A stretch of DNA of 63,243 nucleotides, counting the filler, from Sanchytrium tribonematis (Eukaryota), in NCBI GenBank assembly GCA_018985235.1. It is 9 parts of 9 records of this genome, joined end to end, with 100 filler letters (N's around TTAATTAATTAA, not from the genome) between each part and the next. Parts side by side here need not be neighbours in the genome. Positions count along the whole stretch, not along the records: positions 1 to 25,399 come from JADGIG010000067.1; positions 25,500 to 30,164 come from JADGIG010000694.1; positions 30,265 to 34,923 come from JADGIG010000695.1; positions 35,024 to 39,679 come from JADGIG010000696.1; positions 39,780 to 44,413 come from JADGIG010000697.1; positions 44,514 to 49,141 come from JADGIG010000698.1; positions 49,242 to 53,860 come from JADGIG010000699.1; positions 53,961 to 58,552 come from JADGIG010000700.1; 1 more part is not named here. One strand, given 5' to 3'. The notes under the pieces were generated by a model. The model was not told the origin of the DNA and did no database searches. It worked only from the letters and a program-made list of their open reading frames with translations. Both the position numbers and the translations under genes were made by a program. This document shows positions 1 through 63,243 of the stretch, one piece after another; the stretch's first letter is position 1; each line of letters opens with the position of its first letter.

Positions 1-388
1 AGACAAATTTACCCGCCTATCAATGTGCTTCCTAGTCTTAGTCGATTAATGAAATCTGCTATTGGAGAAGGTTTTTATCTTTAATTAAGGAATGACTCGG
101 GCAGATCATGGCGATGTTTCAAATCAATTGTATGCCAAATATGCCATCGGTAGAGACGCGGCAGCTATGAAGGCTGTGGTAGGTGAGGAAGCTTTGAATC
201 AAGAAGACAAATTGTCGCTTGAATTCTTGGAGAAATTCGAAAAAACATTTATTGCACAAGGTCCATATGAAAGTAGAACCATCGTAGAAAGTTTGGATTT
301 GGCTTGGTCATTACTAAGAATTTTCCCAAAAGAAATGTTAAATCGTATATCTCCAAAATACTTGGACCAATACTATGCTAGAAAATAA
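1..388 (+). CDS. VMA2: V-type ATPase subunit B, 3' part (join <1..70, 90..388)
   Basis: [44 protein letters not shown] is restored by removing the 19-nt intron 71..89. Confidence 0.97.
71..89 (+). other. 19-nt spliceosomal intron
   Basis: GTTTTTATCTTTAATTAAG; removal restores AIGEGMTR. Confidence 0.95.
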
Positions 389-460
389 AATCTTTGATTG
401 GGCTTTTAAGGATTTTGGAAATTTGAAAACAAAAGGAGACGAAGCATTGTCACGAGTTGA

Positions 461-1308
461 ATGGCTCAATTATTTGAGAATGCAGGCGCTTATTTAAAAA
501 GTTTTGTGAGTGACGACTGGGAGACTTTTAATGAAGGTGGGTGGTTTTTGTCTCCGACTCAGCATTTAATCGAAAATCTGATAGTGCTTCCTGTAAGCAT
601 TATCTGCATATTTATTGGAGTGCAGGTTTACAAATATAGTTCATCAATGTTTCCAGTCACTTATTTAAAGCATACAAACAAATCTGAGAAATTCTTAGCT
701 TTTTTATTGCTTTTCAGTTGGGGTATGTTGTATTTGCACAAATTATGGCGCAATGCAATCCCGTATTTACTACAGCCTTGTCACATGTTGAGCGTAATAA
801 GTGCTCTTGTATTTTTTATGCCTAAAAGATGGACCATCACTCATGTAGCTGCATTGATTGCAATCCATTTACAATGGTAAATTTACACTGATGTAGGACC
901 ACCTTGTTAGCTATTGCAACACCCGATACCGCTGATCATATTTATAGATTTGAAACCTTGAATTTTTGGATTGAACATTATTTATTAGTTGCGGTACCAT
1001 TTTTGATTTTAAGATCGTTTGATTTTTCGAAAGTTCTCGGATACAAAGTATCTGTAGCAGTTTGGGGATTCTTTCTGATGTATCATTACTATATTTTGTT
1101 TCCGATCTCATTAAAAACCACAGCCAATCTAAATTACATACTTAAACCACCTAAAGGACCTTTGGAACTATTTGGAAAATATTACCGGTTTCCCATGCTT
1201 TTATTTACTTTGGGAATAACCGTTACCACTGGGAAATTAGTGATACCTTTCCAGACAAGAATTGTGCAAAAATTTAAAAAAGAATTGAGAAAACAAAAAA
1301 TTCAATAA
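461..1308 (+). CDS. TMEM164-family membrane protein (join 461..876, 897..1308)
   Basis: LLQPCH, NFWIEHYLL and NLNYILKP motifs; multiple TM helices; a 20-nt intron joins the two ORFs in frame. Confidence 0.8.
877..896 (+). other. 20-nt spliceosomal intron
   Basis: GTAAATTTACACTGATGTAG; joins HLQW to TTLLAIATPDT. Confidence 0.88.
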
Positions 1309-1342
1309 ATTTATTATCATTAATGACGTGATTTTTCTTCCA

Positions 1343-4060: not shown

Positions 4061-4148
4061 AAATTTTCATCATATATACAAAGAGTCTTGTATACACTTA
4101 AACATTGACTTGCCAGATGTAACAATGGCCACAAAACGTTTAAACTAG

Positions 4149-5505
<1,357 letters not shown>

Positions 5506-5515
5506 TTCAATAAAT

Positions 5516-5968
5516 TTATTCTAACCTTTTTATCACATGAAGACCAGAATCGGTCTTAACAATACCGCTCATTTCACCAACTGAAAGTGCGAAAGAGGCT
5601 TTTTCAAAAGCTTCTTGCATTTGACCAGCCCCGAAAAATCCCAAGTCACCACCTCTCTTAGCACTACTGCAATCGCTTTCAGTTTTCGCAAGCTCCTCAA
5701 ATTCTTCGCCATTATTCAGCTTTTGTATTATACCTTCCAGTATAGTTTTTGCTTCATCCTCAGTTCTGGTAATATTTGGCTCCTTCCAAGAACTAGGTCT
5801 CCTGGAATCTTTGTGTTTGATTAAAATATGGGCACATTTCACTTGCTTTTCATCTGGTCTTTCCCATTGAGACTTGTTTGTTTTGGTATTATAGTAGTAC
5901 ACTTTTTCCTTTGATTTTGAGTATTTTGCCTCCCAGTTCTTTGGCAAAACAGACATTTCCTTTGGCAT
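5516..5968 (-). CDS. ESS1: Peptidyl-prolyl isomerase Pin1/Ess1 (WW + parvulin)
   Basis: WW domain, [31 protein letters not shown]. Confidence 0.97.
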
Positions 5969-6804: not shown

Positions 6805-8336
6805 TTGTTTGAAAGGAGATCCTCGAATTTGAAACGTATTTGGGATACTTTTGATAATAAATGGAGCATTTATTTTGTTTGACGTAAATAATTGATTAAT
6901 TTAATCTTGTAGAATGAGCACTCAACGATTGATGTATGATTTAATCCCATCTCCAAGTTTACCGAGGGAACTTGTAATTGAAAAATCACCAAATAAAGCC
7001 CATGCCGAGTTATAAAACATTAACACCTAATAAATCTAATTCTTAATTTATATTGAACTTCAATTAGCTTTTAGTAATCTTCTAATTGATCTTGACAATG
7101 TATAATAAATACCATCTTATAAAGTTTTTACCAATTCAACGATCCCCCTCCAGCTCAATTCCTCAGAGGGGACTTGAGTAAATAATTAAGAAGGTATAAT
7201 TAACTCGCTCCCCCCATATTTTAAAATGTCAAAAAAACAATAAAAGATTACGTACTTCATATATTATTCATTTTACTAGTGAAATCAACGGTTTTCTTTG
7301 CGTCAGCAGTTTCTTCATCTTAATCGAATTGTGCAATTTTAAATTTTTTTGCAGTCATTGAGTATGCTATTTATTTAATAATACATTTACAACACTAAAC
7401 CAAACTAAGCCATTTTCAATAATGGAAAGTGGAGCTTGATCCCAGTGCTCTACAATTCATTTTCTCAAATTACTAATAGGTGGTTTTCTTAATACTTTTG
7501 ACAATTCAGAATTTCCCATAAATTGTTAACTTGTTCAGTATAAAAGTTTCTGATAGACTTTCTGATATTACTCTTTTAAGATCTAATAATTGCCACATCT
7601 GCTACTTGGCAATATCCAGTTGCACCTTTTGAAACATATAAGCATTTGCTAAATATTCACCTTAATATTTTCTGTTCTAGAAGCTCCATGTGCTGAGCAA
7701 TCCAAATAAGCAATGCATTTCAAAATGGTAAAATGTGATTCAGATATTTGATTAATAATAACTGAGTAACCATCCTATTTAAGTATATCCCATAATACAA
7801 TCTTATTTAGCTGCACTTGTTGTTGCATTTACAATAAAAGGTTTAATTTTGGATCCATTTTTCTTATTTGCAATCATAAATGTAGTATTTGTTTTTTCTA
7901 TAAAACCACTAAAAATAGCGACTACATTGCACCTTTTTAACAACAGTTTTTGGCTTCCCAACATTCATCTAAATAGCAATTTCATCCATGAATAAAATAT
8001 TATCGTCCGTATAATTTGCAGATTCTTTTCTAACATCATAAATGTGATGTGCAGCTGAATTTTCTTATTCCATTTTATCTTTTTTAGTGGATTGTGTAGT
8101 TGATCTGTTAATTAATCCATTTCTATTTAACATTGCTTTGTACCAAGATCCATCTAATATATATTCTAATTCTTGGTTCAATTCATTTTTTAATCAATTC
8201 ATAATTAATAATTATTTTGCATTCCATCATAAACTAAATTCTTTCAATAGTAATCTCTTCAATACTTGCGAATTTCATATTATGTCCAAGTGGTACCACT
8301 TTACGCGATTCTCTCCCTTTAAAATTTAAAATGTTT

Positions 8337-8364
8337 AAGTGTCCACAATAAATCTTTTCTGTTT
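8337..8364 (+). repeat. Tc1 terminal inverted repeat (left)
   Basis: AAGTGTCCACAATAAATCTTTTCTGTTT; reverse complement of 9671..9698 with one mismatch. Confidence 0.88.
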
Positions 8365-9670
8365 TGGAATTGAGGGGACAACGGGGAATTTGGGAGAAAT
8401 CAAAAAAAAAGTTGTCCATTAAAAAAAATTTATTAATAAACATAGTTACGGGCTCCTTTAGTCACAATATGCCCGCCATTTACTTTATGTACTTTTAATA
8501 GTCTACCAGGCACACTCAAAATAGTTTTCTTCACCATTTCTGTATTAATCATCGCGAATTCTTCTCTAATCACTCTCTGAATTAAAACAAATTACAAAAT
8601 ATGTATCCCAGTCCTCACTAGTAATTCCAGTATTATACTCAGAGTGCCTGTCATGTACTTATTCCTTTACGAGACTGATCATATTCTCTACAGGATTTAA
8701 GTCAGGACTTTTGGGCGGCCAATTTAAGGTATCTATACCCAATACACCTAGTTGTTCTATTGTGGGATTACTAGAGTGTGCGCTAGCATTGCCATTAGCA
8801 AATTTGAATTGCATGTTGTTTTTCAGCATCGCAGGTCCTAAACGAGCAACCATCAGATCTTTTACTTGTGGCAATATTTGAGTACAAAAAGAGTCTGAAG
8901 TCACACTTTCACCTGGCTCAAATAAATGAATAAATTCAGTTTCAAATTAATAACAATACATAAATACGCCATAACACCTCTAGATCGTTGAATTTCTTGT
9001 GTAAATTACTCTGGGCGTAAATAATCACCCGGTTTGCGTCATACATGTCTTTGACTACCATGATTATTCTTAAATTCAAACCATGCCTCATCTCCAAAAA
9101 TCACATATTTCCAAAAATGAGGTGTGCAACAAATCCAAGCTCGTGCAAATTCCATTTTTTTAATTCTATGCTCTTTTTCTAGTCGCACACCTCGTATCAA
9201 TTTGAAACATTCGATGTTGAGTTTCTTGTGCAAAAAATTTGACAGGGTTCCTTCTCCACAGTCCAAGTCATAATGCCAAATGATATCTAGTAATGTAATT
9301 GCATTATTGTGATGACTCACAAATATACCTATATCTTCAATCAAATCATTGAAAATTAAACAATCACGACCAGGCCTTCTTTTCTATTCAATGCTTTTTG
9401 TCACTAAACAATTTGATAAAGTGTCAACAATTTGGTCATAATTTGGTGAACTGACACAAGATTCAGATATCTTTTCTATATTTATTGCATTTTTCGCAAT
9501 GCCCATTTTAATGATCCATAAATAATATCTAATCTCTTGTATTCATTTGATGTAAATTTGACATTGTCAGTGTCATTTGGTATTTGTTGAAGTAGTTGTA
9601 CAATCTTCTCTTTGAACATTTGTTTCAAGTTAATTCCACGTGGCATCATTTGTTTGAGAAATGATTTTCG

Positions 9671-9698
9671 AAACAGAAAAGATTTATTGTGGTCACTT
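9671..9698 (-). repeat. Tc1 terminal inverted repeat (right)
   Basis: AAACAGAAAAGATTTATTGTGGTCACTT followed by TA. Confidence 0.88.
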
Positions 9699-16000: not shown

Positions 16001-16878
16001 ATGGCTACTTCCTGAGAATAGCAGTGAAAAAATGGAAATGCCCAAACCATTAGTTACTAAAAAATTCACTCTAAGTTACCTAACAAACGATCCCAAAACG
16101 CTTTTAGAAATTGACCCAATTGAAATGGCAAGGCAGTTATCTCTGATTGAGTATTCTTTATTTTACAAAATTCAGCCAAGAGAGGCTATTAACCAGGTTT
16201 ATGCCGACACTAGCGGCAAAGAAATTAATTTGTATCCAAATATTTTTAAAATGATTCAGTTTACAAATCAAGTCACCATGTGGGTTTGCTCCACTCTTGT
16301 TAGCATCAAAGAAATTAAAAGTAGAGTATTAATGATGAAATATTTTATGAGTATCGCAATTGCATGCAAAGAGATCCAAAATTTTAATGCGCTTACAGCT
16401 ATTGTTGCCGGCTTAACCATGGGCCCTGTGTTTCGACTTAAAAAGACACTTGCGAAATTAGAAAAAGGTTATCCTAAAATTAAGGAAGTTTACACCGAAA
16501 CAGTCAATATTGTTTCACCAAAAGGTTGATTTTATTTATTCAGGTCAATATGCGAATTACAGAAAACATTTAAAAACTTTACAGAAGCCGGTCCTGCCAT
16601 TTCTTGGTATTTTTATTACTGATATGACATTTGTAGAACTCGGTAATAATAATTATTTACCTGAAAATCATTTTATCAATTTTGATAAGCGGCGCAAGTT
16701 TTGCCAAATGATCAAAGAAGTCCAGGAATATCAAAAAAGTGGATTTCATTTTGTTCCAATCAGTTATATTCAAGAATATTTGTTTGCAGTTAAACCAGAG
16801 CAGAATGAAAATAAGTTATTTGAGAATTCACAATTTGTAGAGCCGCCTGAACAAGAAAGTGACGATGAAGATGTATAA
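13080..16878 (+). CDS. Ankyrin-repeat RasGEF (REM + CDC25 domain) (join 13080..16524, 16544..16878)
   Basis: Ankyrin GNTPLHLA/GVTLLMRA; IKGGRLTKLLEYLT; EMARQLSLIE; QNFNALTAIVAGL; PVLPFLGIFITD after splicing. Confidence 0.9.
16525..16543 (+). other. 19-nt spliceosomal intron
   Basis: GTTGATTTTATTTATTCAG; restores SPKGQYANYR. Confidence 0.93.
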
Positions 16879-16945: not shown

Positions 16946-18485
16946 TTACTTTTTTGATTTGCGTTGTAGGGTTTTTCTAGCTTGATTTGGATCCGAAAAT
17001 CCACTTTTTTCTGCTTCAACATATATTGAAGCTTTCTCCCGCAGAAACTTGACATCTTTCCTTGAGAGCTTTATTTGTTTGTATTTCTTCACAATTCGAT
17101 CTTCATTTAAATATTCATGTGGTATATGAAGCAAAAAATTTAGTAAATCACCGGTATTATCGTAAGAAAGTAACTTTGCTAAATAAAATTAAATTACTCT
17201 TACAGCACTCAAGAATGGCCAATCCAAATTTGAAAATTGCTTTTTCGCCTTCTGATAATATAACATCCCAAACTCTGAGGACTGAGGGCCAGGGTAAAGC
17301 CATTGTATACATTGTCATAAACCATTGAGTTGTGAATGTCAAAGCGTGAAGTTCATTTGTTTTTAAATGTTTATAAAGTTTTGGTATTTTCCTAAAGATT
17401 AGCCTTTCAAAAACGAGAGCATCTACTCTCATTTGAACTAGAGAAGGCAAGTACAATTTTGGTATATATTTCTGAATTATTGCATTAAATGTCCAAAATG
17501 ATTCTTCTGGTTCCATTCTCATAAGAAGCAGACCTGCCAGACGACCCATGCCCTGACAATATCCTATATCAGGATGCATATGTGTGAATGCTCGCAAAAC
17601 ATATTGAAGTTGGCTTTTTCCTTGATCATTCCGAAACTTCTGATGTTCAGGGTAACATCGAGAAATGTCTCGATCAATGACTTCATAGGTCTCGTTAGTT
17701 TCTCTGGTAGTCAATTCGGTATACAATAGTGGTTTAAAGTCATTTTCAAATCCAACTAATTTCTTCCAAACTTCCGGTCGAACAGAATTTGGAATTCCTA
17801 GTCGGCAAAGTTTTTTTATTTTCTTTCCTTTCCTTTTGGGATTCCAGTTATTAATAATTGCTTTCCATTGGCTTTCTAAATTTGTATCACTACTGATTTT
17901 GTTGTAGCCTTCATATTCGCCTTTTATTATAAATCCGTAGATGTCGAATTTTTCATCTATTTTGGGAGAAACTACATTTGGTTCCGCTAAACTTTTACGT
18001 TTCGTAGGATTAGGAGACACTGATTTTGGTACGGACTTGGTATTGTCAGGTGACTGCGGAGAAACCATGCCGCTTTCATCGATTTCTTTTACATTAGAAT
18101 TCTTCAAAGAAGTTTTTGATGATACTGCATGTTCATTTAATATAGCAGCACTTTCTACAACATGAACTTCATTTTGTATAACGGGTATTTCTTGAGGAAT
18201 ATCGGCGATGATTTCTTCTTTGTCAAAATTAGACCTGGAAATGCTAACTTCATCTTTTGGGGACTCTTGATGAATCATTTGCTGGCTAACCTGAAGAACT
18301 TTTGAAAGTAATTCTTCGCCCAATTGATTTCCGTTTCTTATTATATCATCAATATTATCGTTCCTAGGTGGATTCACGTCAATATCAATACTCTGGGCCA
18401 ACGAATGACTATCCCGACTGCCTTCTTGTTCTTCACTAGACGTGTTGCCTTCACTGCGCGGTCTTGACGGAGATTCACTATCCAT
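16946..18485 (-). CDS. TBC-domain Rab-GAP (join 18485..17198, 17178..16946)
   Basis: GIPNSVRPEVW, IDRDISRCYP, GYCQGM, VLRVWD; a 19-nt intron joins the last exon. Confidence 0.9.
17179..17197 (-). other. 19-nt spliceosomal intron
   Basis: GTAATTTAATTTTATTTAG (minus strand); gives ECCKTKLLSYDNTGDLLNFLLHIP. Confidence 0.88.
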
Positions 18486-18744: not shown

Positions 18745-20308
18745 ATGCAAAAGTCGGCAAAAATGTATTGGTCAGCAATAAAGTCTCAACACGTGCCTAT
18801 TCGCCCACAATATTTCACCAAACTTCCCCTTCAAATGACTCGTCAATCTTTCAGCCTTTGGGCATTCTGGGGTAGCATCGTCGTTGGTAATTTGGCACTC
18901 AACTACGTTTTGTTCCAGTCATTTATTGCTCTTTTGATCCAATTTGTTCCTGTGGGGTTTCTGATTGGAGTGACGTTCTTCTACAGCTTCAGTTACTACT
19001 ACACACCTTCTCACTATAAGGAAAAGAAACTTGTCCCAATGAATCAGTATTATCATGACTATATCCGACAAGTCATCAATCTTCCTAAAGATATCTGGCC
19101 TTTGCTAAAAAATAGACACCAACATGTGAGATTTGCATTTGCCGTTGAAGATTTCAAGTTTTTTTTGGGTACTTGGTTGCCTGAACTGTTATGGCACTCA
19201 AAGAGTCAAGACAAAGATCAAGTTACTGATCATTATGACCGTGGAAATGATTTTTACAATGCCTTTTTGGGAGACATGATGATTTACACTAGCGGTATGG
19301 TAACACCACAACTCTTAAAAGGTGTTCCTGAAAAAGATCTTGGAGACATTGAAGGAATGCTTAATGCTTTGGACTGCCCGTTTGGTTTAAATGCTTTAGA
19401 ATCCATCCAACTGGCTAAATTGAAACATGTTTGTCAAACTTTGGAATTAGAGCCTGGAATGAATATGCTGGATATCGGTTGTGGTTGGGGTACATTGGCT
19501 AATTACGCTTCAAAGAGATACGATGTCAATTCTTTAGGAGTTACTTTGGCAAAAAATCAAGTTCAATTTGGAAGTTATGTTGCTAAGCAATTAAATCAAT
19601 CTGAAAAGGTTAAATTGTTGGCTTGCGACTATCGTGATATTCCAAATACTAAATACGATAGAATCAGTTGTTTGGAAATGGCAGAACACGTTGGTGTAAA
19701 AAGATTTGGTGCTTTTATGGATCAATTGTATAATATTTTAAATGATGATGGTGTTTTGTTTATCCAGGTAGCTGGTCTTCGACGTGCTTGGCAATTAGAA
19801 GATTTGATTTGGGGATTTTTTATGGCCAGATACATTTTTCCTGGTGCAGACGCATCTACACCTTTGAATTGGTACATTAGTCAATTGGAATATGCTGGAT
19901 TTGAAATTCAATCCACCAAAACCATCGGTACTCACTATGGTGCTACATTAAAGGCATGGTACGATAATTGGTTAGAAAAGGAGGATCAAATTCGTCAAAG
20001 GTTGTTTTTATTTATTTAGATATGGGGAATATTGGGTCAGATTATGGAAATTCTTTTTGGGATGGTCCAGCATCATTGCCCATCAAGGAAATGCAACCTG
20101 CTATCAGATTGTTGCTATTAAGAACAGAAATGAATTCCGTCAAGTTGGTAAAGGTGGTAAACACAGTGTTCAAACTTGGACTAAACCAGTGGAATTGGAC
20201 CAACAAGACCGCGAATTTGTAGATGTAATGAGATCAAGCTGTCAACAAATTTGGAAGGGACAATTAGAACGCGCTGATAGTAAGCAAAATATTTCCACAG
20301 TCGAATAA
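18745..20308 (+). CDS. Sphingolipid C9-methyltransferase (CFA-synthase family) (join ~18745..20000, 20020..20308)
   Basis: HSKSQDKDQVTDHYDRGNDFY, LDIGCGWG, CLEMAEHVG, YIFPGADASTPL; spliced YGEYWVRLWKFFLGWS..QGNATCYQI; start codon uncertain. Confidence 0.9.
20001..20019 (+). other. 19-nt spliceosomal intron
   Basis: GTTGTTTTTATTTATTTAG; restores IRQRYGEYW. Confidence 0.94.
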
Positions 20309-20336: not shown

Positions 20337-21537
20337 ATGAAACAAAAAAGAGCAAAAAAAAGCAACAGTAATTCTAATATGGCCATTGACAAATATTCTG
20401 CATACGGTGCAGGATCTTCGTTTGCAGGGCAACTCGGAAAAGATGGTGGCAAATTCAGGACACCTAATCCAATCCAAATTGAAGAAGATGTTTTAATGAT
20501 TGCAGCTGGTGGAATGCACAGTGTATTTTTAACAAAAAAAGGAATTTATACTTGTGGATGTGGTGATATTTATGCGACTGGTCGTAAAGATGATGAAGAT
20601 GAAGTGATTTTACAAGTTCAAAGTACTAATATTTCATATGTTGCTGCATCTGACAGCATGACATTATTCGTCACTCAGGGACAACTTTATGCGTTTGGCA
20701 CATTTAAAGATGAAAATGGTGGCAAAAAATTCAATAAGACTACAGAGATACAACAGACACCCTCTCTTGTACCTATTAATGATCGAGTTGTATCTGTGGT
20801 TTGTGGAAGTGACCACGCATTAATTTTATGTGAAAGTAAAGACTGTTATGCTATTGGAGTTGATACATTATATCAAATTGGTTATAGGACAAGCGCTAGA
20901 ATACAAGATGATAGGTGGATTACTTGCGATCGACCTTTGTGCAAAAATATTGTTTTAACTGGTGCTGGTGATTTTCACTCAGTAATAGTTAGCGACACTG
21001 GAAATATATACACTTGTGGGTTGAATGGTTTTGGCCAATGTGGATATTTGAGAACCAATGCCACAGCTACTGTTACATTTGCACTAAATAAGCAATTAAC
21101 TATGTTTTTCAAGCAAAAAGGGCTTGAATTGAAGCAAGTTGAAGGTGGAGTCGCCAACACCTTATTTTTAACAACCAATGGAGAAGTTTATGCCATTGGT
21201 AAATCAGATGGAGGAATGCTTTGTAAATCTGTTGAATATGTCGGTGAAGAGTATTCTTTTGAGCCTATCAAAATTGAATTTTCTAAAAAAGTAATAATCG
21301 ATTCAGTTTCTACTGGAGGAAATGCTTGCATCGCAGTTTCAACAGATGGCGTAGCCTATTCATGGGTAAATCATATTAATTTAGGGCCAAATAGTCAATT
21401 ACGCAACAGCTCATGGCATTGAAACAGAAAATGATATTTACTCTCCATTAAAAATTCCTGGATCACACATTGAAGGAAAAAGGTGCACTGCCGTATCTGT
21501 TGGCGGGCAGCATTCCTTGTTTATTTATCGAGAATAA
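20337..21537 (+). CDS. RCC1-repeat protein, RanGEF RCC1/Pim1-like (join 20337..21365, 21385..21537)
   Basis: Basic N-terminal NLS, AAGGMHS, CGSDHAL, GLNGFGQCG; spliced YSWG and terminal SVGGQHSL. Confidence 0.85.
21366..21384 (+). other. 19-nt spliceosomal intron
   Basis: GTAAATCATATTAATTTAG; restores AYSWG and the last RCC1 repeat. Confidence 0.92.
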
Positions 21538-21622: not shown

Positions 21623-23423
21623 ATGAATGAAAATCAACCAGGGAATTCTGGTTCAGGAATGGATATAGATAAACTTTTAAATTACACAGAAGAGATAAAA
21701 TTAAATACTTCACAAAACTTAGACACATCGCGTAAACCATCAAAATTACAAAGAAAAAACAGAAGATCAACAAATCCACAATCGCCGATTGATAAACATT
21801 CAGATCAAGTACTGGAGAATTCAAATATTAATTCAGAAACAATTTCTAAAAATGAAATGACCTTTAAACAAAAAACCATAGAAACTAAATCTGCATCTTG
21901 GTCGCACTTGCCTGTCATTAAAACCGCAGCCTTGGATCCAAATGAATTTGAATCTGATTCCATTAAGAAAGAAGCTGCTGCAAAAATTATACAAAGAGCC
22001 TACAGGCTTCACTTAATTAGAAAACATTTTAAGAAAATTAAAGAATTGAATATAACGAAAGCACCATCCGAGAATGGTATAACGCATCCTTCTACTAAAA
22101 TTGGAACTGCAAGAACCTCGGTTTCTTTCTTGGGGCTAAAGCTTATCGAAAATAAAGTTGATCAAGCTCCATCCGTAGATGAACAATCAGAAGATCAGTT
22201 AGAAGTACTTCCATTGATTTTGGACGACTCAGTTGTTAAGAAAATGCCTGATGAATGGGATGCAATGAGAATTGAGGCCTTTAACAGAAAGCCAAAAGAT
22301 TGTGTCAAATTATTTATCAGAGAAAGTACAACTGAAGAAGATCTCTCCATCAATATCGCAAAGTTTCTGGATAGAGCTCCTGGTCTAGATAAGGTGAAAA
22401 TTGGTGAACTTTTAGGAGAACCAGATGAACTTTCCTTAAAAATCTTGAAACATTATGTTGCCTTGCAACAATTCCATGACTTGCTATTTAATGAAGCTTT
22501 GAGAAAATTTATTCAAAAATTTAAACTTCAGGGAGAAGCTCAGAAAATCGATAGAATTATGAGCGAATTTGCAAATCAATTTTGTTTTGACAATCCAAAC
22601 AGTTTTAAATCGTCATCAACCGCTTACGTACTTGCATTCAGTTTAATCATGCTAAATACTGATGCTCATAATCAAAGCATAAAAAAGAGAATGTCGTTAC
22701 AGGAATTCATAAAAAATAATAGGGGAATTGATGAGGGGAAGGATTTAGACGAAAAATTCCTTAAAACTCTTTATTTTGATATTAAATTTTCGGAAATTAA
22801 AATGAATGACAATTCAGACCAAAAGGCCCTGGACATCTGGAATAACATTCTACCAAAACCCATTGTACTTAATATTTACTTAGGCAATATTTAAAGATAG
22901 AAAGCTTTTATCGCAATATGAGCTTGTAGAGTTCAAAGATGTTGAAAAGTTTATACCACACAAAGCGCCCAGATTTGTATTTCTATTTGCAGATATGGTC
23001 GTAATTACTAAAATGAATGGTCCTAAGAAGTACGCTCTCAAAAGGCGGATATATTTGCAAGACTTAAAAATGAGGATTCTTACTGAAAACAATCAACTGA
23101 TTGTCATTTTGTCTTCAGAGGAACGCAAAAGTGCATTTCAGTTCACCCATATGGAAGCACTTGAGGTGTTTGTTCGTCATTTTGAGCAAGCCATACCTGC
23201 ATTTGAAAATGACAGAGATATATTAATTGTCAATGCCAAGAAATCTGTTGAAGAAAAATATGGTATAACTAATTATTCAGATTCAAATGTAAGTATATCT
23301 AGTCTCAAAAGTGAGACAAAAGATCTTCAAGTCAGAGGTTCCTTTAGATCGCCATTTGGACCATCTTCTAAATCGATAATATTAAATCGGCGGAGGAGCA
23401 ATACGCAACAAGGTACTATATAG
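21623..23423 (+). CDS. IQ-Sec7-PH Arf-GEF (IQSEC/BRAG-like) (join 21623..22864, 22884..23423)
   Basis: IQ motif IIQRAYR; Sec7 FKLQGEAQKIDR and LAFSLIMLNTDAHN; PH-like RFVFLFADMVVITK after splicing. Confidence 0.85.
22865..22883 (+). other. 19-nt spliceosomal intron
   Basis: GTACTTAATATTTACTTAG; puts the Sec7 and PH ORFs in frame. Confidence 0.9.
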
Positions 23424-24753: not shown

Positions 24754-24757
24754 TTTA

Positions 24758-31030: not shown

Positions 31031-32384
31031 TTAATCGCCTTTAGTATGAATACCAGTATTATCATACGAAAAACCGTAAAAGTCATCTTCTGGAGAAGAA
31101 GGAATTGAGACAAAGCATCCTGAGTCTTTTCTGATGACATCATCTACTCGTTCTTCTAGAGCTTCAGGATCCAGGTACATTGTATCATAATCGCTTGACT
31201 AAATGAATTCATAATACGACATTAGGAGTAAAAGTTGGTTGGTATTCTTTTCTTAGCAATTTTTTCCAGTCAAGACCTTGAAAATATTTGTGGTTCTTTA
31301 CTTCTTGAGCACCTTTATAACCCAATCTGTTTTTGGGATTTCTCTGTAATAATCTGGAAATGAAGTCAATTGTATTAGGATTAAATGATAAAGGAAAATT
31401 GACTTTACACTTTAAAATATTATTATAAATCTGTTCCGATTTGGTGGAATAAAAGGGAGGGACACCGACCAGCATCTCGTAAGTGACATTCCCTAGGCAC
31501 CAAAAATCGACAGTTGCGTCATAATTTTGTCGTAGTAAAATCTCAGGGCATAAATATTCGACAGTACCACAAAAGCTCTTGGCATTTAAGTCATCCAGAT
31601 GACAGCTTTTAGCCAATCCAAAATCGCATAAAACAATGTGACCATCAGGTCCAAGTAGTAAATTTTCAGGCTTTAAGTCACGGTATAAAAACCCTTTTTT
31701 GTGTAAATAATCCAAAGCCGAGGTGATTTCGGCACAATATAATTTAGCTCTGCCTTCTGAAAATCGTCTTTCTCGCTGTAAATGATAATATAATTCTCCT
31801 CCATTTATAAAATCCATACAGAAAAAGAGATGAGATGCGGTTTGAAATGTGCACTTTAAATTGATCAGAAATGGATGACTCAGATGACACATTATATTCC
31901 TCTCATCCATTACATGTTTGATTTCATTTTTTTCGATAAGTAGATCTTTCTTCAAAACTTTGATTGCAACAGAAGCGTTTGTTTCTTTATCAATTGCATG
32001 TAATACTCGCCCAAAAGTACCTCTTCCTACTACTCTTATCAATTTGTATTGATCGAGGGATTTAGTACGTGGCCTTCCAGTAAACTCCATTTGTAAGCCA
32101 AGATGAGTGTCTAAAAATGCACTCAAAATGGAACTGCTCTTTAAACATGGGTGATTTTCAACGACTCGTATCCAATCTTCCAACAATTCGAGCCTCTTCT
32201 TCATATTAGCGTCCGTTTTGATCCATATCTTTTTAGGAAATATTGGTAGCTTAACGAAAGGATATTTTTCGAGTAGCAGGTCATTGAATTGATGAAATTG
32301 ATTGTATCTTCTCTTAATAGGACCTTCCTTAGTCTGAAGAACATAGTAAGTCGTATTTGTTTGAAAATCGTAAATCGACTGCAT
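31031..32384 (-). CDS. PX-domain AGC kinase, SGK3/CISK-like (join 32384..31218, 31198..31031)
   Basis: PX RRYNQF..LPIFPKK; GRGTFG, YRDLKPEN, SFCGTVEY; last exon supplies the hydrophobic motif FYGFSY. Confidence 0.88.
31199..31217 (-). other. 19-nt spliceosomal intron
   Basis: GTATTATGAATTCATTTAG (minus strand); gives PTFTPNVSSDYDTMYLDPE. Confidence 0.93.
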
Positions 32385-32751: not shown

Positions 32752-33183
32752 ATGGGAAAAGCCAGCGGAATCAACGCAGCAAGAAAATTAAAAACACTTA
32801 GAAGAGTAAACAAATGGAGCGATAAAGCATATAAAAAAAGAGCTCTTGGCACTGCGTTTAAATCAAGTCCTTTTCAAGGTGCATCGCATTCTAAAGGAAT
32901 TGTTCTTGAAAAAGTTGGTGTAGAAGCAAAACAACCAAATTCTGCTATCAGAAAATGTGTCAGAGTACAATTGATTAAAAACGGAAAGAAAATTACTGCT
33001 TTTGTCCCTCAAGATGGTTGTTTAAACTTTATCGAAGAAAATGACGAAGTCTTAGTTGCTGGATTCGGTAGAAAAGGTAGAGCTGTTGGAGATATTCCGG
33101 GTGTTAGATTTAAGGTTGTTAAGGTTTCTGGAGTTTCGCTTCTTGCTTTGGCAAAAGGAAAGAAAGAAAAGCCACGTTCTTAA
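32752..33183 (+). CDS. RPS23: 40S ribosomal protein uS12 (S23)
   Basis: [36 protein letters not shown]; intronless. Confidence 0.99.
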
Positions 33184-38571: not shown

Positions 38572-39259
38572 ATGTTTCTTTTCGACGTCGATAATACTTT
38601 ATACCATCACAGCAAAGGCGTTGGAAAATTGATGGCAGATAAAATCATCGAATATTGTAAGACTCTTGGTTATTCTTACAAAGAAAGTGCGGATTTATCA
38701 CTTCGATATTATATAGATTATGGTTTAGCCATTAGAGGATTTGTGAAGCATCATAATATCGATCCTTTGGATTACGACTTAAAAGTAGATCAATCCTTGC
38801 CCTTGGATGGTCTTATAAAAGAAGATGTGGAGTTAAGAAATATTTTAATGAAATGTAACCAAAAACGATGGGTATTCACCAACGCTGCGAGGCCGCATTG
38901 TATAAGAGTACTCAAGTTGCTGAATGTGTCAGATTGTTTTTCCGGAATTACGCATTGTAAATATGAGAACCCTAATTTTTATTGTAAACCAGATGTTGAA
39001 TATTATTATGAAGTTTTAAAGGAATCCAACTACGATGGTCAAGAAACTATTTATTTTGTAGATGACTCTCTTAAAAATTGCAAAAGAGGTCAAGAATTGG
39101 GCTGGAAGGTTTGTCACGTTCTCACTGGAGATTACCCTGATCAAACGACACCGATGCAACACATCACATCACTTGGTATTTTTAATTTATTTAGGTATCA
39201 TCCCACAAATCAAGACGATTCACGATATTGTGAATATATTTCCTGAATGCTTTGAATAA
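38572..39259 (+). CDS. SDT1: HAD pyrimidine 5'-nucleotidase (Sdt1/Phm8-like) (join 38572..39175, 39195..39259)
   Basis: FDVDNTLY, YGLAIRG, WVFTNA, CKPD, FVDDS; spliced tail IHDIVNIFPECF. Confidence 0.85.
39176..39194 (+). other. 19-nt spliceosomal intron
   Basis: GTATTTTTAATTTATTTAG; yields a family-like C-terminus ending GAA-TAA-A. Confidence 0.85.
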
Positions 39260-42213: not shown

Positions 42214-43772
42214 TTAAAATGCAAACTTTTGCTGCTGTGAGCCAAACGCAAAAGTGCCATCGTCGTTTAGTTGCTGTTCTGCCATGCTGTCATGTTGAAA
42301 GTATTTGTCTAGCAACCCTGAACATTTCTTATAAATTTCATCATTATTCATGTGAGTCAAGTTACTCAATCTATCATGTGCACCAAATTCTTCTGCTACT
42401 TGTACATATCTGTTATATCCTCCTTAATTAAAAATTAAATACCACCAGCTTGCGCCATTAAGTCTCCTACTTTTAAGATATTAGCAATTCCATCTAAAGA
42501 AACTTGAATGATTCCTACGTCCATGCAATTTAATATTTCTAACAAAGGTCCCATGCATCCACATTGAACTAGATAATCTACCTGCTCTGGATTTTGAAGT
42601 CCACCAGTGGTGGCATTACTAATTGCCCAACAAGCCTCTCTTTTTGTTTTCATATCACCATGCTGTAAACATTGAACAAGATTCGGAATCATTCCTGCAT
42701 CAATGACTCTTTGAATTTGTTTAGAATTTCCAGCCGTAATATTAGAAATGGTCCAGCAGGCTTCTTTTTTGATGGACTGCTTATTTGAGCTTAACAGTCT
42801 GTATAAGGGCTCAAGAACATTATTGCTGAGCACGACTTCTGTTTGAAGATCGCTTCCGGTCACAATATTGCCAATGCTTCGCAATGCGGGTGTCTGTACA
42901 TTTGGATTTGGATGGCCTAAAAGTTCGATTAATCTTGGAATGACACCACTTTGAATAACTTGCTCAATTCTATCGTTAGTTCCATCAGAAATGTAAGATA
43001 TTGACCATAAGGTATCTACTAAAATTTCCTCATCCGAAGTTGAAAGCAAATTACGTAAAACTGGTACAGCAGGTTCTAAATAGGACCATTCAGCGGATGG
43101 ATGCTTTCCCCTACAAAAGTTGCTCAGAGTCCACGTAGCATTTCTTACTAGAGATAATTTTGTTGATTCTGTCATGAGAATATTAAGCAATGGCGCCATT
43201 GCACCACAACGTAAAACTGCATCACGACATTGAGGCGCATCGCCAGCAATATTTCCTAAAGCCCAAACAGCTTGTTCTTTAACATCCATGTACTCACTTT
43301 GTAAAAGTCTGACAAATTCCACTACAGCGCCTGATTGTATTACAGTAGCAGTTTGGTCAGAACTTCCAGACGCAATATTAGTCAAAGCCCATGCAGACTC
43401 AAAAATAATAACGCTGTTATGGTTAGATAACAATTGAACTAATATTGGGACAATTCCTATCGCGATGATATTATCAATTGGAGGATTTCTTTCTTTACTA
43501 AGTAATCTTCTAATTTGCACTACAGTTGTCAAAAGTAATTTATCATCATGTCTCTGTTCTAAATTCATTTTCAAGGTAGCAAAGTCATTTGATGGGTCCG
43601 GAACTACTATATTTTCATTTCGGTTTTCATCAACTGTTAGTCTCCGCTTTTGCAAATTCTCTTCTCGTTTTTGTCTCCTCAATTGCAAAGTTGTATCTTC
43701 TCTTCTCTTTTTAACCTCATCTGCTCCAAATTGACTTCTTTGTTTAAATGCAGTTTGACGGTTGTTCATCAT
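42214..43772 (-). CDS. SRP1: Importin alpha (join 43772..42443, 42422..42214)
   Basis: IBB domain, ARM repeats (AWALTNIASG); last exon YNRYVQVAEE..NDEIYKKC..LLDKYF. Confidence 0.96.
42423..42442 (-). other. 20-nt spliceosomal intron
   Basis: GTATTTAATTTTTAATTAAG (minus strand); restores the ARM10 exon. Confidence 0.88.
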
Positions 43773-44572: not shown

Positions 44573-45611
44573 TTATTGAGTAGGTGAATTGGAGTCTGAA
44601 TCTACCTGTTTATGTTCTGAGTCTTCTTCGTTTGCAATCTCTTGTCCATTTTCATCGACAGCAACTAACTCGATTATCTTGACTCGTGCAAATTCGGATA
44701 TCCATTTGCTGCTTTTACTTTCACCAAGACCATCAAGAATCTTTTGAAAGCTTTCGATATCCTCACGCAAGATTGCGCTCTTAAGATCGACCGGACAAGC
44801 CTTTAAAACTTCAGATTTTTCAGAACTTGGAGAAAGATCAAAGAAATGGCCGTCCTCAGGTTGGTTTAAACAACTCATCTTTTTCGACATTTGGATTTTT
44901 GACACCTGAAGCTTTTAATTTTTCGCCATAGGCGAAAGCATATTCAAAAGCCGCAGAAAGAAGAGTTTCTTGGTTTTTAGAATCTACGATCTCCGGATTA
45001 CTTTGAATAAAATTGTAAATTTCTTCAATATTTTTTAATCCAACAAATTGCAAGAGTGTTCGATTATTTTTAAGAGAATCAGGAACGATGAATAAACCCG
45101 GTTGATTGACGGTTACAAATTTCTTATCACTTGAGGCAGTGAAGCTGTCCTCAGGATTTTCAGGAGGTGATTTTGATTTTTGCTGTTTTTTCACATTAAC
45201 TCTAGTTGTACTAAAACCTTCGTGACACACTTTATCAACAGATAAATCTGCCTCTTCTTTCTTTTTTAATTGCAAATAGTCTTTTTGAATCAAATCGTAA
45301 ACCCGCTGCAATTCTTCAGCATATTGACTTCTCTGAAATTTCGGCAAATCCTGTTCTAGTTTTGGAATAGCTTTGAACAGCTGATTTAAATCAGCTTCTG
45401 GGTTCTGTTTTACAGACTCAATAGCGCTTTTCAAAAGGATTTGATTTCGCTCCATCAGTTGCAAATGGTCTCTTCTTTCATCTCTTTCTTTATGAAGGGC
45501 CTCTCTTTTCCATTTAATAAACGATTTTTTATCGATATTGGGGTGGCATTCTGTATCTGAATCGTCACTTAGTGTTAAATTGTCCCACTTTGAATATGAT
45601 ATTGCTGACAT
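44573..45611 (-). CDS. CDC37: Hsp90 co-chaperone Cdc37; frameshifted and apparently missing part of the middle domain near 44860-44900
   Basis: ISYSKWDNLTLSDDSDTECHPNIDKKSFIKWK N-domain; C-domain-like VLKACPVDLKSAIL in another frame. Confidence 0.8.
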
Positions 45612-45667: not shown

Positions 45668-46099
45668 ATGGACGACACGAATGTTCTAATCAGTGGCTTA
45701 CTGGTTCAGCTAGAGGACGCTTTGAAAGTCAATCAGTCTACAATTGAAGAATTAAAAAAACAGATGGCAATTAAGAACCCTCAAGTAGATCAAGTGAAAG
45801 AGTATGAATGGACAATGGAATTTATGATTACTTGTCAGCGCAAAATGTTTAAGAATTATTCTGAGACTATCGGTGAGATTAAGAAGAATTATAATGCAAA
45901 TTTAAGTTCAGCTTCGAAGGAAATTAATTTTTGGAAGAGAAAGTATGACCTTGAAAAAAAGAAAAATGAGGATTCCTTATTACTAATCGAGAAAATAGTA
46001 AGCAGCACTCAAAAAGAATTTGATGACTATCACAACATGATAGGAATATACCAGACATACACAGATAATTTGGTTAAACAATTTAATAAAAATTCATAG
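45668..46099 (+). CDS. Coiled-coil protein of unknown function
   Basis: 143-aa heptad-rich ORF filling the gap between CDC37 and UTP11. Confidence 0.55.
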   Translation: MDDTNVLISGLLVQLEDALKVNQSTIEELKKQMAIKNPQVDQVKEYEWTMEFMITCQRKMFKNYSETIGEIKKNYNANLSSASKEINFWKRKYDLEKKKNEDSLLLIEKIVSSTQKEFDDYHNMIGIYQTYTDNLVKQFNKNS

Positions 46100-46100
46100 A

Positions 46101-46697
46101 TCATTTTGCTCTTTGAGCCTTCCATTTATAGGTGACTGAGCCGTCATCATGTTCTATCTTTTTTCTGGGCCCTTTGGAATGGCTTAAGTGATATTGTAGA
46201 GTCATTTGGCCAAGTACATGTTTAAGATCTGACAGCCTTTCTTCCCGTTGTTCAAGTTCAATTTCTGCAGGAGATTTGGAAGAATCGGCATCGCCAGCCA
46301 TTGTATTTGCTTCAGTGCTACAATATATGATGTGCACGCCTTTATAAGGAACATTCATTTTGTTTTTCAATTTCTCAATCTGTGATATTTCTCTTTCAAT
46401 TAACATTACGATATATTGTCTATCCTGTGTTTTCATTAGTTTAATCATTTCAGGAGAAAGATTATAATCAGAGGCAATTATTTTTCCTTTTGAATTTTGT
46501 TTAATATTGACCATTTTAAAATAAAATTCATCAGGGTTTCTAGTTAACGCCTTTTTTTCCAATTGTTTAATTGCGTTTTCTTTTGCATGAAAGTTTTTTG
46601 CTCTTAGTTTATAATCGCTTTTCTTTTCTAGTAATCCAAATTTGTGTCTTGAATGCGGTTGAGATCGCTCACGATGTAATTTGTGCTGTTTTCCCAT
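46101..46697 (-). CDS. UTP11: U3 snoRNP protein Utp11
   Basis: HRERSQP..GLLEKKSDYKLRA, RNPDEFYFKM, YKWKAQRAK. Confidence 0.95.
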   Translation of the reverse strand: MGKQHKLHRERSQPHSRHKFGLLEKKSDYKLRAKNFHAKENAIKQLEKKALTRNPDEFYFKMVNIKQNSKGKIIASDYNLSPEMIKLMKTQDRQYIVMLIEREISQIEKLKNKMNVPYKGVHIIYCSTEANTMAGDADSSKSPAEIELEQREERLSDLKHVLGQMTLQYHLSHSKGPRKKIEHDDGSVTYKWKAQRAK

Positions 46698-59836: not shown

Positions 59837-60233
59837 ATGAATGTGACTTGTCAATGGAATGGATGCTTTGTTGATTTGCCGATAGAAGAAATGGTGGATC
59901 ACGTTTCAAATACCCATATTGGCTACAAACGAAATGACACTTTTCAAGGGAAATGCAAGTGGATTTGTGTAAACCGGAACAACAACATACCCAACTGTAC
60001 TGAATGCCATTATACCGGAGGAAGTAGACATCTTTTGCTTTCTCATATTCGCAGACATTTTGAGACGAATGCCTACATTTGTGAAATTTGTAAAAAGGCT
60101 AGTTATAAATGGAAAGTAATAAAGATTAACGCAGCACGATATGCTCAAACACTCGAGAAAATGCAAGTCTAAGAAGTTTGAAAAGCTTGTAAACTTTCTC
60201 TTTGAGGGTGTGCCCTTGAACTTGACACAATAA
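59837..60233 (+). CDS. 125-aa PacC/Rim101-like three-zinc-finger protein (join 59837..60115, 60135..60233)
   Basis: TCQWNGC..HVSNTHIGYK..CKW..RHLLLSHIRRH..CEICKKASYKWKHDMLKH after splicing. Confidence 0.65.
60116..60134 (+). other. 19-nt spliceosomal intron
   Basis: GTAATAAAGATTAACGCAG; completes the third zinc finger. Confidence 0.88.
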
Positions 60234-60274
60234 ATTTATGAAACAAATATCCGATTGGGAGTAGGTAGAAATTT

Positions 60275-60287
60275 CACGTGAAAATTC
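60275..60287 (+). promoter_or_regulatory. Candidate ribosomal-protein promoter element CACGTGAAAATTC
   Basis: E-box starts 44 nt before the RPL20 ATG, as for RPS23. Confidence 0.5.
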
Positions 60288-60318
60288 AACTCTACTCCAA
60301 ATTATTCTAAATATAGTA

Positions 60319-60861
60319 ATGGCATTAAAAGAATATCAGGTTGTCGGAAGATTAAAGCCTAATGCAACTAAAAGAGCATCAGCTAATCCTGCTCTATATA
60401 GAATGAGAATTTTTGCACCTAGTCACGTTGTTGCAAAATCTAGATTCTGGTACTTTTTAAAGAAAATGAAGCGAGTCAAAAGAGCAAATGGAGAGGTTGT
60501 CTCTCTAAATGAATTACATGACACTAATCCAAGAACTGCAAAAACTTACGGAGTTTGGATCAGATACGACAGCAGAAGTGGAACTCATAATATGTACAAG
60601 GAATACAGGGCTTTAACTAGAGCAGAAGCAGTCGAAGCAACTTATAATGATATGGCTGCTAGACATAGAGCTAGATTTTCTTCCATTCATATCATCAATG
60701 TACAAGTAGTTAAAAGTTCTGACGTTAAGCGTCCTCATATTGCAATGCTATTGAAAGAGGATCTTAAATTTCCACTTGTTCACAATGTAGCCGGTGAAAA
60801 AGCAAAGGAGAAGAAATACAAGAGCAAATTTGTTGCTTATCGACCAAATACTTTTCAGTAA
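60319..60861 (+). CDS. RPL20: 60S ribosomal protein eL20 (L18a)
   Basis: LYRMRIFAP..VAKSRFWYFL, YDSRSGTHNMYKEYR, MAARHRAR; intronless. Confidence 0.98.
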   Translation: MALKEYQVVGRLKPNATKRASANPALYRMRIFAPSHVVAKSRFWYFLKKMKRVKRANGEVVSLNELHDTNPRTAKTYGVWIRYDSRSGTHNMYKEYRALTRAEAVEATYNDMAARHRARFSSIHIINVQVVKSSDVKRPHIAMLLKEDLKFPLVHNVAGEKAKEKKYKSKFVAYRPNTFQ

Positions 60862-60875
60862 AATAGTATGATTAT

Positions 60876-63243
60876 TTATTGCTGTTGGTTTGCTAGTTCT
60901 TTTTTCTCTCTTTCTGTTATAAGCTGAGAATACTTGTAAATATGTGATTCTTTGAGGGCTCTTAAATTAGAACAAAATTCATAGGCAGAGGATGTATTTT
61001 CAAGGTAAGGAAATTGATATTGAGTGCCTTGAAATTTCTCTATGGTTTTGGATTTTCTCAGCATTGTTTGTAATTTGTCTATATTTACCATGTTGTCAAT
61101 CATCTTCTGGTTACCGTCATTTATAAAAAATAAGTCTTTGGCCAACAGTCCTAAATAAAATCAAAATACCTAGAAATGGAATAAAAGGCTCATCATCAAA
61201 ATCTTTTTCCACTTTGTCAAATATCTGCCTGTAATTTTTGTAATTGCTTTGAGGGCTGACTATAGTTTCCAATTCTTGAAGTGTCTCTTTACTCTTCTCG
61301 CTCACTGCTTCCCAAGTCATTTTGAGCCGCGAGACAGCTGCCAAATTAAGACCAGAAACCACAGCTACTAGCGCATTGTAGTTTCTGTATCTCTCCAATT
61401 CCTTCGCTATTTTTATAAATTTTTCGATGAGCTTGATTCTTGGTTTTAACTCGGGTTGTGTAGCTATTTCGGTGGCAACCCAATAACTAAGCTGGTTAAA
61501 TTGTTGAATCATTTCGCTATAATTAACTAACTCAGCCGACACATCAGGGTTTCTCAGATCTCCCCACAGTTGAAGAAGTAACTCAAAAAATCGAATTTTG
61601 CAAAATTTTTCATACTCTACAACACATATTTGTTGGGCGATATCCGAAGCTTCAAAATCCGAAAAGTCTTTTCGCTTTCCAGAGACACTCAACTTTAATT
61701 TTGGTTGAGATATTTGAAAAATTCTTAATTCTAGATAAAAGCGGGACAATGCTGCTATCTCACAAAAGCTGTCATGAAGCTGTTGCTCTAACATAACGTC
61801 TTCTACTTCTGAAAACTCCGATAGCTCAAATAAAATAAATATTTTCTCAAGAACTCGTCTATTTTCTGCAATTTTAAAATCAAATGGGTATTCTTTTATC
61901 CATCGGAGAAGAATTTTCACAATACGGGCTCTAATTGGAGTTCTCCATTTTTTAAAATAAAGCTTGTCATCTTCCGATGGCTTCTCTGGTAGTACTGAAT
62001 TGAACCGAATAAGTAACTTATCAAGTGTGACAGATATTGTTGAAAAATGTCTACTACCAAGAATAAAGGCATCTACAAATGACTCGTCTGGAACACCATG
62101 CTCGTCGCAAAGCCTTTCTACAAACTTATCTATTTTCGCTGCTATGATGCAAAATCTACTGCGTTTATTTCCTTCGTCTATGCCGTATCTAATATTTGAG
62201 TTTGCATGAGAACTTGCCTCAATAATAACCTGGACATCGCTATTGTTTCTCTTTACGTCCATGCCAGTCATCTTTGCAATTTCATCTTGAATATTTGTTG
62301 CTTCAATTGGTGAAGTCATCCAAGCATCTTCATTGCTAGATCCTTTCGAGTTTACCTCGAGCTGAGAGTTGGAATTTTTCTCTTGATCAGTCAGCGTACC
62401 GTCGGAAACTTTGTCAGTATTCGTTCCTAAAGGAACAGGGGCAATAACACTACTGGAGGACGATTGTGTAAATAAGGTAGGTATTACATTGGAGGTATTG
62501 ACATTTTCTAATATCGGATCTTGTTTTCCACGCATCATTACACTTTTCCTTCTGCCCAATGTCGCATTTATGGTAGGACCCTGTGTTCCTTCTTTTGCAC
62601 TTGTTCTACGAGACGCATTAAGTGAGGTATCTGTAGATGATATGTCCTCTGGGAGAATATCAAGGGAGTCTTTGCGAAGGGTATTTTTAGTGTTTAATAA
62701 TTCTTGAATTTCTAGCGATGTTAAATCTGGTACAATATAACTTTTGGTGTCTAAAGCTGTAAAATCAACCATTTTTAATTCTTTAATAATCGTTGCAACC
62801 TCAGTAACATAGTCAGAAGATTTTTGATCTCTCGCACCACTTTGCAACAAGTCTCGAACCATGTCTCTCGTTTGCTGGTCATTCAATACAGAAACTAAAT
62901 ATAGTGTATTTGCAGCGGTATTAATACTTGCAACCCACCTTATCATTTCTTCATGGTTATCTGCTTCAAATGTGAACATATCTGAATCCAGCATGATATC
63001 AAAAGAAGCGACATTCGTAGGACTAGAATCCACGACTGCCAGTGAATTTTTGGTCAACTGTAGCTTTTTAACTAATTGCTGCCTAGTCAAATTTTTATAC
63101 ATTAACAATTCATAATCCCGCAGCTCGATGAAGTAAGATGTAGTGGACTGCGTACTAACAGAATTTAGACAAGCTTTGACGTGACCTTGCGCAACAGATG
63201 GATGAAGCATTTTAAGCATCAATTTTGCATTCACCTTTTCCTT
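60876..63243 (-). CDS. PH-domain RasGEF (REM + CDC25), 5' truncated (join >63243..61170, 61150..60876)
   Basis: PH FEADNHEEMIRWVASI; DIAQQICVVE; RNYNALVAVVSGL; IPFLGLLAKDLFFINDGN after splicing. Confidence 0.9.
61151..61169 (-). other. 19-nt spliceosomal intron
   Basis: GTATTTTGATTTTATTTAG (minus strand); restores PFLGLLAKDL. Confidence 0.95.

Follow-up and report, generated by a model that had tools for sequence, protein, structure and literature searches.

Probable introns and gene structures

The analysed stretch of 63,243 nucleotides (nt) from Sanchytrium tribonematis (hereafter the window) consists of nine AT-rich contigs joined by spacers (GC 33.7%), and the elements considered here are 14 ultra-short segments, each breaking the reading frame of one gene; with 62 kb of sequence and 14 introns this is a small sample. 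All the segments have GT..AG ends on the gene strand, 12 being 19 nt and two 20 nt long, and their interiors contain 10% GC. Excision joins two open frames in each of the 14 genes, while retention leads to a stop 1–23 codons past the donor. They are likely to be genuine introns of the U2 type in a sanchytrid fungus, and the adenosine in position -6 from the 3' end is the predicted branch point. The introns are given below with their strand, gene, length, phase, distance to the stop codon and supporting evidence.

71..89 (+), V-ATPase subunit B: 19 nt, phase 1, 296 nt before the stop; same site and length in the metagenome contig L001, with a different sequence
877..896 (+), TMEM164-family gene: 20 nt, phase 2, 409 nt before the stop; Pfam TMEM164 profile 3-101, then 106-216
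5011..5029 (+), NDR/Cbk1 kinase: 19 nt, phase 1, 473 nt before the stop; best of 31 cuts
16525..16543 (+), ankyrin-RasGEF: 19 nt, phase 1, 332 nt before the stop; RasGEF profile 1-120, then 132-181; branch motif
17179..17197 (-), Rab-GAP TBC: 19 nt, phase 1, 230 nt before the stop; frame join and branch motif
20001..20019 (+), CMAS-type methyltransferase: 19 nt, phase 2, 286 nt before the stop; frame join and branch motif
21366..21384 (+), RCC1-like gene: 19 nt, phase 0, 150 nt before the stop; profile 3-322, then 327-363, in register
22865..22883 (+), IQ-Sec7-PH gene: 19 nt, phase 0, 537 nt before the stop; PH domain in exon 2
31199..31217 (-), PX-domain AGC kinase: 19 nt, phase 0, 165 nt before the stop; Pkinase, then Pkinase_C 2-44 (E 0.015, below the cut-off)
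39176..39194 (+), HAD hydrolase, which we take to be SDT1-like: 19 nt, phase 1, 62 nt before the stop; top leave-one-out motif score, 22.3
42423..42442 (-), importin alpha: 20 nt, phase 1, 206 nt before the stop; Arm_3 in exon 2
48400..48418 (+), HRD1/synoviolin RING: 19 nt, phase 2, 289 nt before the stop; best of 8 cuts
60116..60134 (+), small zinc-finger-like gene: 19 nt, phase 0, 96 nt before the stop; the weakest case
61151..61169 (-), PH-RasGEF: 19 nt, phase 1, 272 nt before the stop; RasGEF profile 1-152, then 155-181, in register

These coordinates had been proposed in an initial annotation and each was exact on sequence inspection; likewise, the four motifs quoted there (V-ATPase AIGEGMTR, kinase DYIAPE, RING CPVCR and RasGEF PFLG) were regained on removal of the segments. 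The contig list, however, places the introns on six contigs and not on five as had been stated, and the claim that no longer intron is present holds for frame-breaking introns in the window, while in-frame introns may exist.

In 8 of the 14 genes the junction is flanked by Pfam matches to the two halves of a single domain or to successive domains. The HRD1 RING ended at profile position 42 of 44 and exon 2 of V-ATPase B began at profile position 7, while exon 2 of the TBC, CMAS, SDT1-like, HRD1 and zinc-finger genes had no Pfam match of its own. Among the 12 breaks which need the removal of 3n+1 nt, a 19-nt GT-AG cut was available in all 12 and every other such length between 10 and 118 nt in 0–5, a comparison biased by the fact that the breaks had been picked in the initial annotation. 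Against homolog profiles the claimed cut ranked first of 31 in the NDR kinase (653.6 vs 646.2 bits), first of 12 in importin alpha (701.3 vs 700.0 bits) and first of 8 in HRD1 (338.6 vs 324.0 bits). The 20-nt importin cut aligned gap-free to the Amoeboradix gromovi protein P0001, whose open reading frame (ORF) reads through the site, and the 20-nt cut in the TMEM164-family gene was the sole solution under 110 nt. In V-ATPase exon 2 all five listed X1 variants fell on third codon positions of the spliced frame. An X1 contig differs from the window at positions 79 and 87 inside the intron 71-89, where the AAG end becomes CAG, with the length, the GT..AG ends and the branch motif kept.

Branch motif and intron type

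Alignment at the 3' end shows a pattern common to all 14 introns: position -8 is T, -6 is A and -5 is a pyrimidine. The initial annotation had made no mention of this fixed branch motif; the same three positions are found in L001. The 3' motif reads T-N-A-Y-N-H-A-G, with two bases between the branch motif and AG and with the adenosine at intron position 14 or 15. A column consisting entirely of A was obtained in 0 of 200,000 within-intron shuffles. The consensus of the U2-type branch site is yUnAy, and the T-N-A-Y block is a reduced U2 branch motif. The minor, U12-type introns are marked by RTATCCTT at the 5' end and by a TCCTTAAC branch site; this type was rejected, positions +5 and +6 being free of C in all 14. 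The 5' end is GT(A/T), and +5 was only A or T, with no G in any intron. Frame repair by GT..AG excision, a branch adenosine motif and conservation of sites with diverged sequence were all found, as for U2-type introns, and the G+5 consensus was not. G at +5 (GTAAGT type) is a usual but not an obligatory U2 feature, reduced in myxozoans as well according to the accessible part of PMC13644364.

The most likely mechanism is the usual two-step splicing of the U2 type, acting on a substrate close to the minimum size. The U2 small nuclear RNA (snRNA) would pair with the T-N-A-Y block, the adenosine at -6 would attack G+1 to form a lariat loop of 14–15 nt, and the AG two bases beyond the branch motif would serve as the acceptor, leaving no room for a polypyrimidine tract; the intron length would follow from the constant 3' block together with a 5' arm of minimum size, with no rigid ruler. 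We consider this combination of U2 pairing, attack by A-6, AG choice and length setting very likely. The proposed "length-measuring" spliceosome stood only in part: the distance from the branch adenosine to AG is fixed, but total length is 19–20 nt here and 23 nt as decoded in the HRD1 relative P0361, because of which a rigid total-length ruler was rejected.

A "miniaturised" spliceosome, also proposed initially, finds no support in the annotation table of A. gromovi, which lists U1-70K, U1A/U2B'', U2AF1, U2AF2, SF1/BBP, Prp40, SF3B1, Prp8 and Magoh and therefore gives no sign of a stripped spliceosome of the Mikrocytos kind. U1-C was not found in the part of this table that was examined, and an Rfam search of the window and L001 gave no snRNA (0 matches).

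Conservation in relatives and position of the organism

Importin alpha and the NDR kinase of the window are 81 and 87% identical to those of A. gromovi, the next named taxa having at most 61%, and the NDR tree (one gene, 26 rows chosen for taxon spread from 120 matches) groups the window, A. gromovi and two environmental proteins at 100/99. The window GC of 33.7% compares with 34.6–36.3% given for sanchytrids in the accessible text of PMC8371127. By its grouping with A. gromovi and its low-GC compact genome, the organism belongs to Sanchytriomycota. Sequences close to the sanchytrids (P0123, P0124, P0242, P0244, P0361 and L001; 74–87% for NDR) suggest that public assemblies contain more sanchytrid genomes than have been recognised.

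Metagenome contigs were scanned with a degenerate pattern allowing an intron of 15–75 nt at the V-ATPase B site, and L001 was the single match. It carries a 19-nt intron with 5 of 15 interior positions identical to the window's and with the branch motif kept, while the flanking exons are identical at 55 of 70 and 105 of 134 nt (79% at the DNA level) and the protein at 67 of 67 residues; the first 384 codons of L001 are open without interruption. The corresponding NDR pattern gave 0 matches in metagenome contigs. With L001 as its single match, the V-ATPase scan provides no evidence, within 15–75 nt, that this site is shared outside the lineage.

At the NDR site, 111 of the 120 listed matches continue with APE after the motif, four lack the motif and one differs; among these matches, the window ORF and its three closest relatives (P0122, P0123 and P0124) are interrupted there. 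The read-through tail of P0123 decodes to an intron of 19 nt (13 of 14 residues; 4 of 12 for the next best length), that of P0124 also to 19 nt (7 of 7 residues), and the tail of P0122 from A. gromovi fits 20 nt, its codons forcing T-8, A-6 and C-5. All three close relatives at the Sec7 site (A. gromovi P0243 and the ENA proteins P0242 and P0244) end 2–4 residues beyond it. In the HRD1 relative P0361 (77%) the break falls on the corresponding codon, and the decoded intron again has A at -6. The end of P0396, a distant protein (1 of 150), at this site is a weak hint of an older site. Altogether, four of the five sites compared (V-ATPase B, NDR, Sec7 and HRD1, but not importin) are shared, with constant branch spacing and lengths of 19–23 nt. 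The initial claim of spliceosomal introns in a fungus-like opisthokont is upheld by the branch motif, the shared sites with diverged introns and the placement next to Amoeboradix, with splicing itself being predicted.

According to the accessible text of PMC8371127, the sanchytrid ORFs were predicted by TransDecoder on genomic contigs; in that text 'intron' occurs solely in the reference list and 'splic' never. The public set indeed contains proteins which run into an intron and stop there, as had been foreseen for standard gene predictors: P0121 and P0241 from the window and P0122 and P0243 from A. gromovi, the latter two labelled complete. They result from intron-blind ORF prediction, which would truncate 14 of the 38 genes counted in the window. 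Since the published proteomes were called without introns, the C-terminal domain losses inferred for the phylum need rechecking.

Confinement of the introns to the 3' ends of genes

All 14 introns lie 62–537 nt upstream of the stop codon, at relative positions of 0.50–0.91 in genes of about 0.4–3.8 kb, a confinement that had not been noticed in the initial annotation. When introns were placed uniformly at random along these genes, 0 of 200,000 simulations attained the observed mean position; with the first 50 codons left out, 1 of 200,000 did. The 19,443 coding bases within 540 nt of a stop contain all 14 introns, while the 29,067 coding bases farther away contain none (P 3e-6); the count covers the 38 genes whose stop codon lies inside the window, leaving out 3'-truncated genes, unassigned short ORFs and the transposon, and the 540-nt limit was derived from the data. 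In the accessible parts of the respective papers, intron loss in fungi generally affects the 3' side of genes and spares 5' introns (PMC8476143) and the first-described microsporidian intron set is extremely 5'-biased (PMC6349667), which makes the sanchytrid pattern a reversed one. It runs counter to the 5' bias explained by loss mediated by complementary DNA (cDNA), and raises the question of whether splicing can depend on 3'-end processing.

The ribosomal protein genes S23 (32752-33183) and L18a/L20 (60319-60861) have no frame-breaking intron; intron-poor fungi usually keep introns in ribosomal protein genes, as stated in the accessible text of PMC8476143. Convergent genes end 1–10 bases apart at 5505-5516, 24753-24758, 46099-46101 and 48710-48715, and their 3' untranslated regions must therefore overlap the coding sequence of the neighbour.

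A possible cause of the confinement, to which we give somewhat less than an even chance, is a dependence of splicing on 3'-end processing. An intron of 19 nt would be too short for U1 and U2/SF3b to be accommodated side by side, so recognition across the intron would be weak. Factors bound at the poly(A) site might instead recruit U2AF and U2 across the last exon, and introns farther upstream would then be poorly spliced and eventually lost. In mammals, according to the accessible part of PMC5071671, mutations of the poly(A) signal touch the terminal intron only, and PAP and CPSF stimulate its splicing. The wider proposal that splicing in an entire fungal phylum is restricted to last introns, with at most one intron of 19–23 nt per gene, no more than about 0.6 kb from the poly(A) site and through dependence on cleavage and polyadenylation, is more speculative still; if true, the sanchytrid introns would be the shortest typical introns of opisthokonts and a natural case of terminal-exon definition alone.

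Further candidates in the window

Two additional places resemble the introns described above.

8577..8595 (-), degenerate transposase of the Tc1/mariner type: candidate intron, 19 nt, 141 nt before a stop; best unclaimed motif match
23263..23280 (+), 18-nt in-frame GT..AG segment with a branch motif in exon 2 of the Sec7-PH gene

The first joins to an open frame of 47 codons. The upstream piece of the transposase matches DDE_3 and mariner/Sleeping Beauty transposases, and the downstream piece had no transposase match in Pfam or PDB. The element, a degenerate Tc1/mariner DNA transposon, occupies 8334-9698 with 33-nt terminal inverted repeats at 8337-8369 and 9666-9698, and an X1 contig links 8333 to 9698, leaving it out. 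The second could be a stop-free intron or a chance occurrence, the proteins of the relatives ending upstream of it. On another part of the window, a single intron-free ORF (53962-56874, minus strand) combines anthranilate synthase component I, glutamine amidotransferase and indole-3-glycerol-phosphate synthase domains.

Alternative explanations

The joint explanation that we favor, with considerable confidence overall but less for its second half, is that of true U2-type introns surviving near gene ends with the help of 3'-end processing. Several points weigh against it. Splicing and the lariat were deduced from DNA and protein sequence alone. The strict motif by itself also matches 18 unclaimed places at 19–20 nt, and a two-strand codon-usage parse without an intron model recovered 6, 3 and 1 of the 14 introns at three penalties, calling other lengths as well; the claimed introns made up 6 of 27, 3 of 10 and 1 of 3 of those called, and the parse is too weak to set boundaries. 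Other cuts are possible in three genes, namely ankyrin-RasGEF (13, 16 or 22 nt), CMAS (16 nt) and the AGC kinase (22 nt), the last two using the claimed acceptor, and the margin for importin is a narrow 1.3 bits. For the zinc-finger and SDT1-like cases the evidence consists of motif and frame: exon 2 of the SDT1-like gene is 20 codons long and lacks homology support, while the zinc-finger-like gene has the branch motif at a leave-one-out score of 5.3, no Pfam match and a second 19-nt solution. Among the relatives, the importin gene of A. gromovi is uninterrupted where that of the window has its intron, and all the intron lengths except that of L001 are best-case back-translations from proteins. 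The finding that no gene has two introns (P 0.02–0.06) is only suggestive, and a coupling to 3'-end processing in this organism may be proposed but tentatively. Finally, no intron-like GT-AG cut repairs one of the 15 breaks in host genes, that of Cdc37 (44573-45611, minus strand), where the coding sequence passes into another frame near 44870; this break is probably a one-base assembly error or an allele. In either frame most of the listed X1 variants in Cdc37 are at third positions (11 of 13 and 4 of 5), and the X1 pieces stop at 44869 and resume at 44871 at a T-run, with no indel row listed.

Regarding position, the introns may be real and owe their 3' location to biased loss, for example a cDNA-mediated one sparing the last few hundred bases, or to a milder harm from retention at the 3' end. 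This is about as likely as dependence on 3'-end processing. It needs no new biochemistry, the importin site differs between sanchytrids, and an intron density of 0.29 per kb of coding sequence, against 1.30 in Allomyces (PMC8476143), implies that heavy intron loss has occurred. However, reverse-transcriptase-mediated loss in fungi prefers 3' introns, which is the opposite pattern (accessible text of PMC8476143), and the limit looks absolute, never exceeding 537 nt although the genes reach about 3.8 kb. Less likely than either, and improbable in our estimate, is a detection artefact by which 5', in-frame or untranslated-leader introns were missed: short first exons and stop-free introns of 18 or 21 nt give no ORF break, and the in-frame candidate at 23263-23280 is of this kind, but the bias persists without the first 50 codons, the start of L001 is open, importin and its ortholog can be aligned from the beginning on, and a two-strand motif scan gave only one further good 19-nt match, again near a stop.

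As to the nature of the segments, the U2-type assignment has to be compared with a non-spliceosomal reading, which we regard as very improbable. Splicing being predicted here from sequence, such a reading finds some ground in the HAC1/hacA genes of fungi, which contain non-spliceosomal introns of about 20 nt. It is opposed by the GT..AG ends and branch motif in all 14 cases and by sites conserved across species in housekeeping genes; a single ribosomal frameshift was rejected, since in five of the 14 genes there is a gap between the end of the upstream frame and the beginning of the downstream one, which one shift cannot bridge. Assembly or amplification errors, of which the Cdc37 break may be an example, were rejected as having a negligible probability, largely on account of the unrelated metagenome contig L001, which together with P0361 and six related proteins (two of them from A. 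gromovi) shares the breaks with different letters, and also because X1 contigs, which may be the window's own source and then not independent, cross 877, 5011, 16525, 17179 and 48400 with no indel listed there and no difference at the 48400 intron.

Comparison with known short-intron systems

Ultra-short U2 introns are already known; new are the lineage, the length and the 3' confinement. The open-access literature, including the accessible parts of PMC8371127, PMC10459994, PMC13393502 and PMC10406608, yielded no mention of sanchytrid introns, although a brief earlier one is possible, and no 3'-confined intron set was found in the open-access literature. The sanchytrid mode of 19 nt is below every opisthokont value in the accessible parts of the papers on known ultra-short introns and represents an independent origin of near-minimal introns, within Fungi.

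The introns of the Bigelowiella nucleomorph (18–21 nt) are alike in length range, AU-richness and GT-AG ends, but they belong to the intron-dense remnant nucleus of an endosymbiont and their branch adenosine is reported as not discernible, in contrast to the A fixed at -6 in the sanchytrids. The following systems are compared as described in the accessible parts of the papers cited. Mikrocytos mackini (16–17 nt; PMC10245619) is likewise a parasite with two adjacent length classes, yet it is a rhizarian with 17–19 spliceosomal proteins and no U1 snRNA listed, while A. gromovi is annotated with U1-70K, U2AF and SF1. Encephalitozoon cuniculi (about 25 nt; PMC6349667) is, like the sanchytrids, a holomycotan parasite with short GT-AG introns, but these are longer, number about 36 in the genome, had an extreme 5' bias in the first-described set and are spliced at under 20%. 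The myxobolid myxozoans and Dicyema (PMC13644364) are also opisthokont parasites, with GTa as the 5' signal and little or no polypyrimidine tract, and differ in their longer median (22–27 nt), a weakly conserved branch adenosine at variable distance and an enrichment of short introns in multi-intron genes. In Yarrowia lipolytica, Trichomonas and Giardia (PMC2483917) the branch site is anchored to the acceptor without a polypyrimidine tract, as in the sanchytrids, and the 2-nt spacing between branch motif and AG in Yarrowia is the same; their introns are far longer (median 204 nt in Yarrowia) and have strong ACTAAC motifs in place of T-N-A-Y.

A parallel in branch geometry is Stentor coeruleus (PMC9505925), with introns of 15–16 nt. 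It resembles the sanchytrids in AU-richness, an abbreviated 5' signal and, going by the A. gromovi annotation, a largely complete spliceosome, and differs in being a ciliate with 8,806 introns that are 3–4 nt shorter and for which the accessible text reports no 3' confinement. Its branch adenosine at position 10 of 15 or 11 of 16 corresponds to -6, exactly as in the sanchytrid introns. Convergence of the two lineages on this placement of the adenosine is an indication that the spliceosome has a geometric floor.

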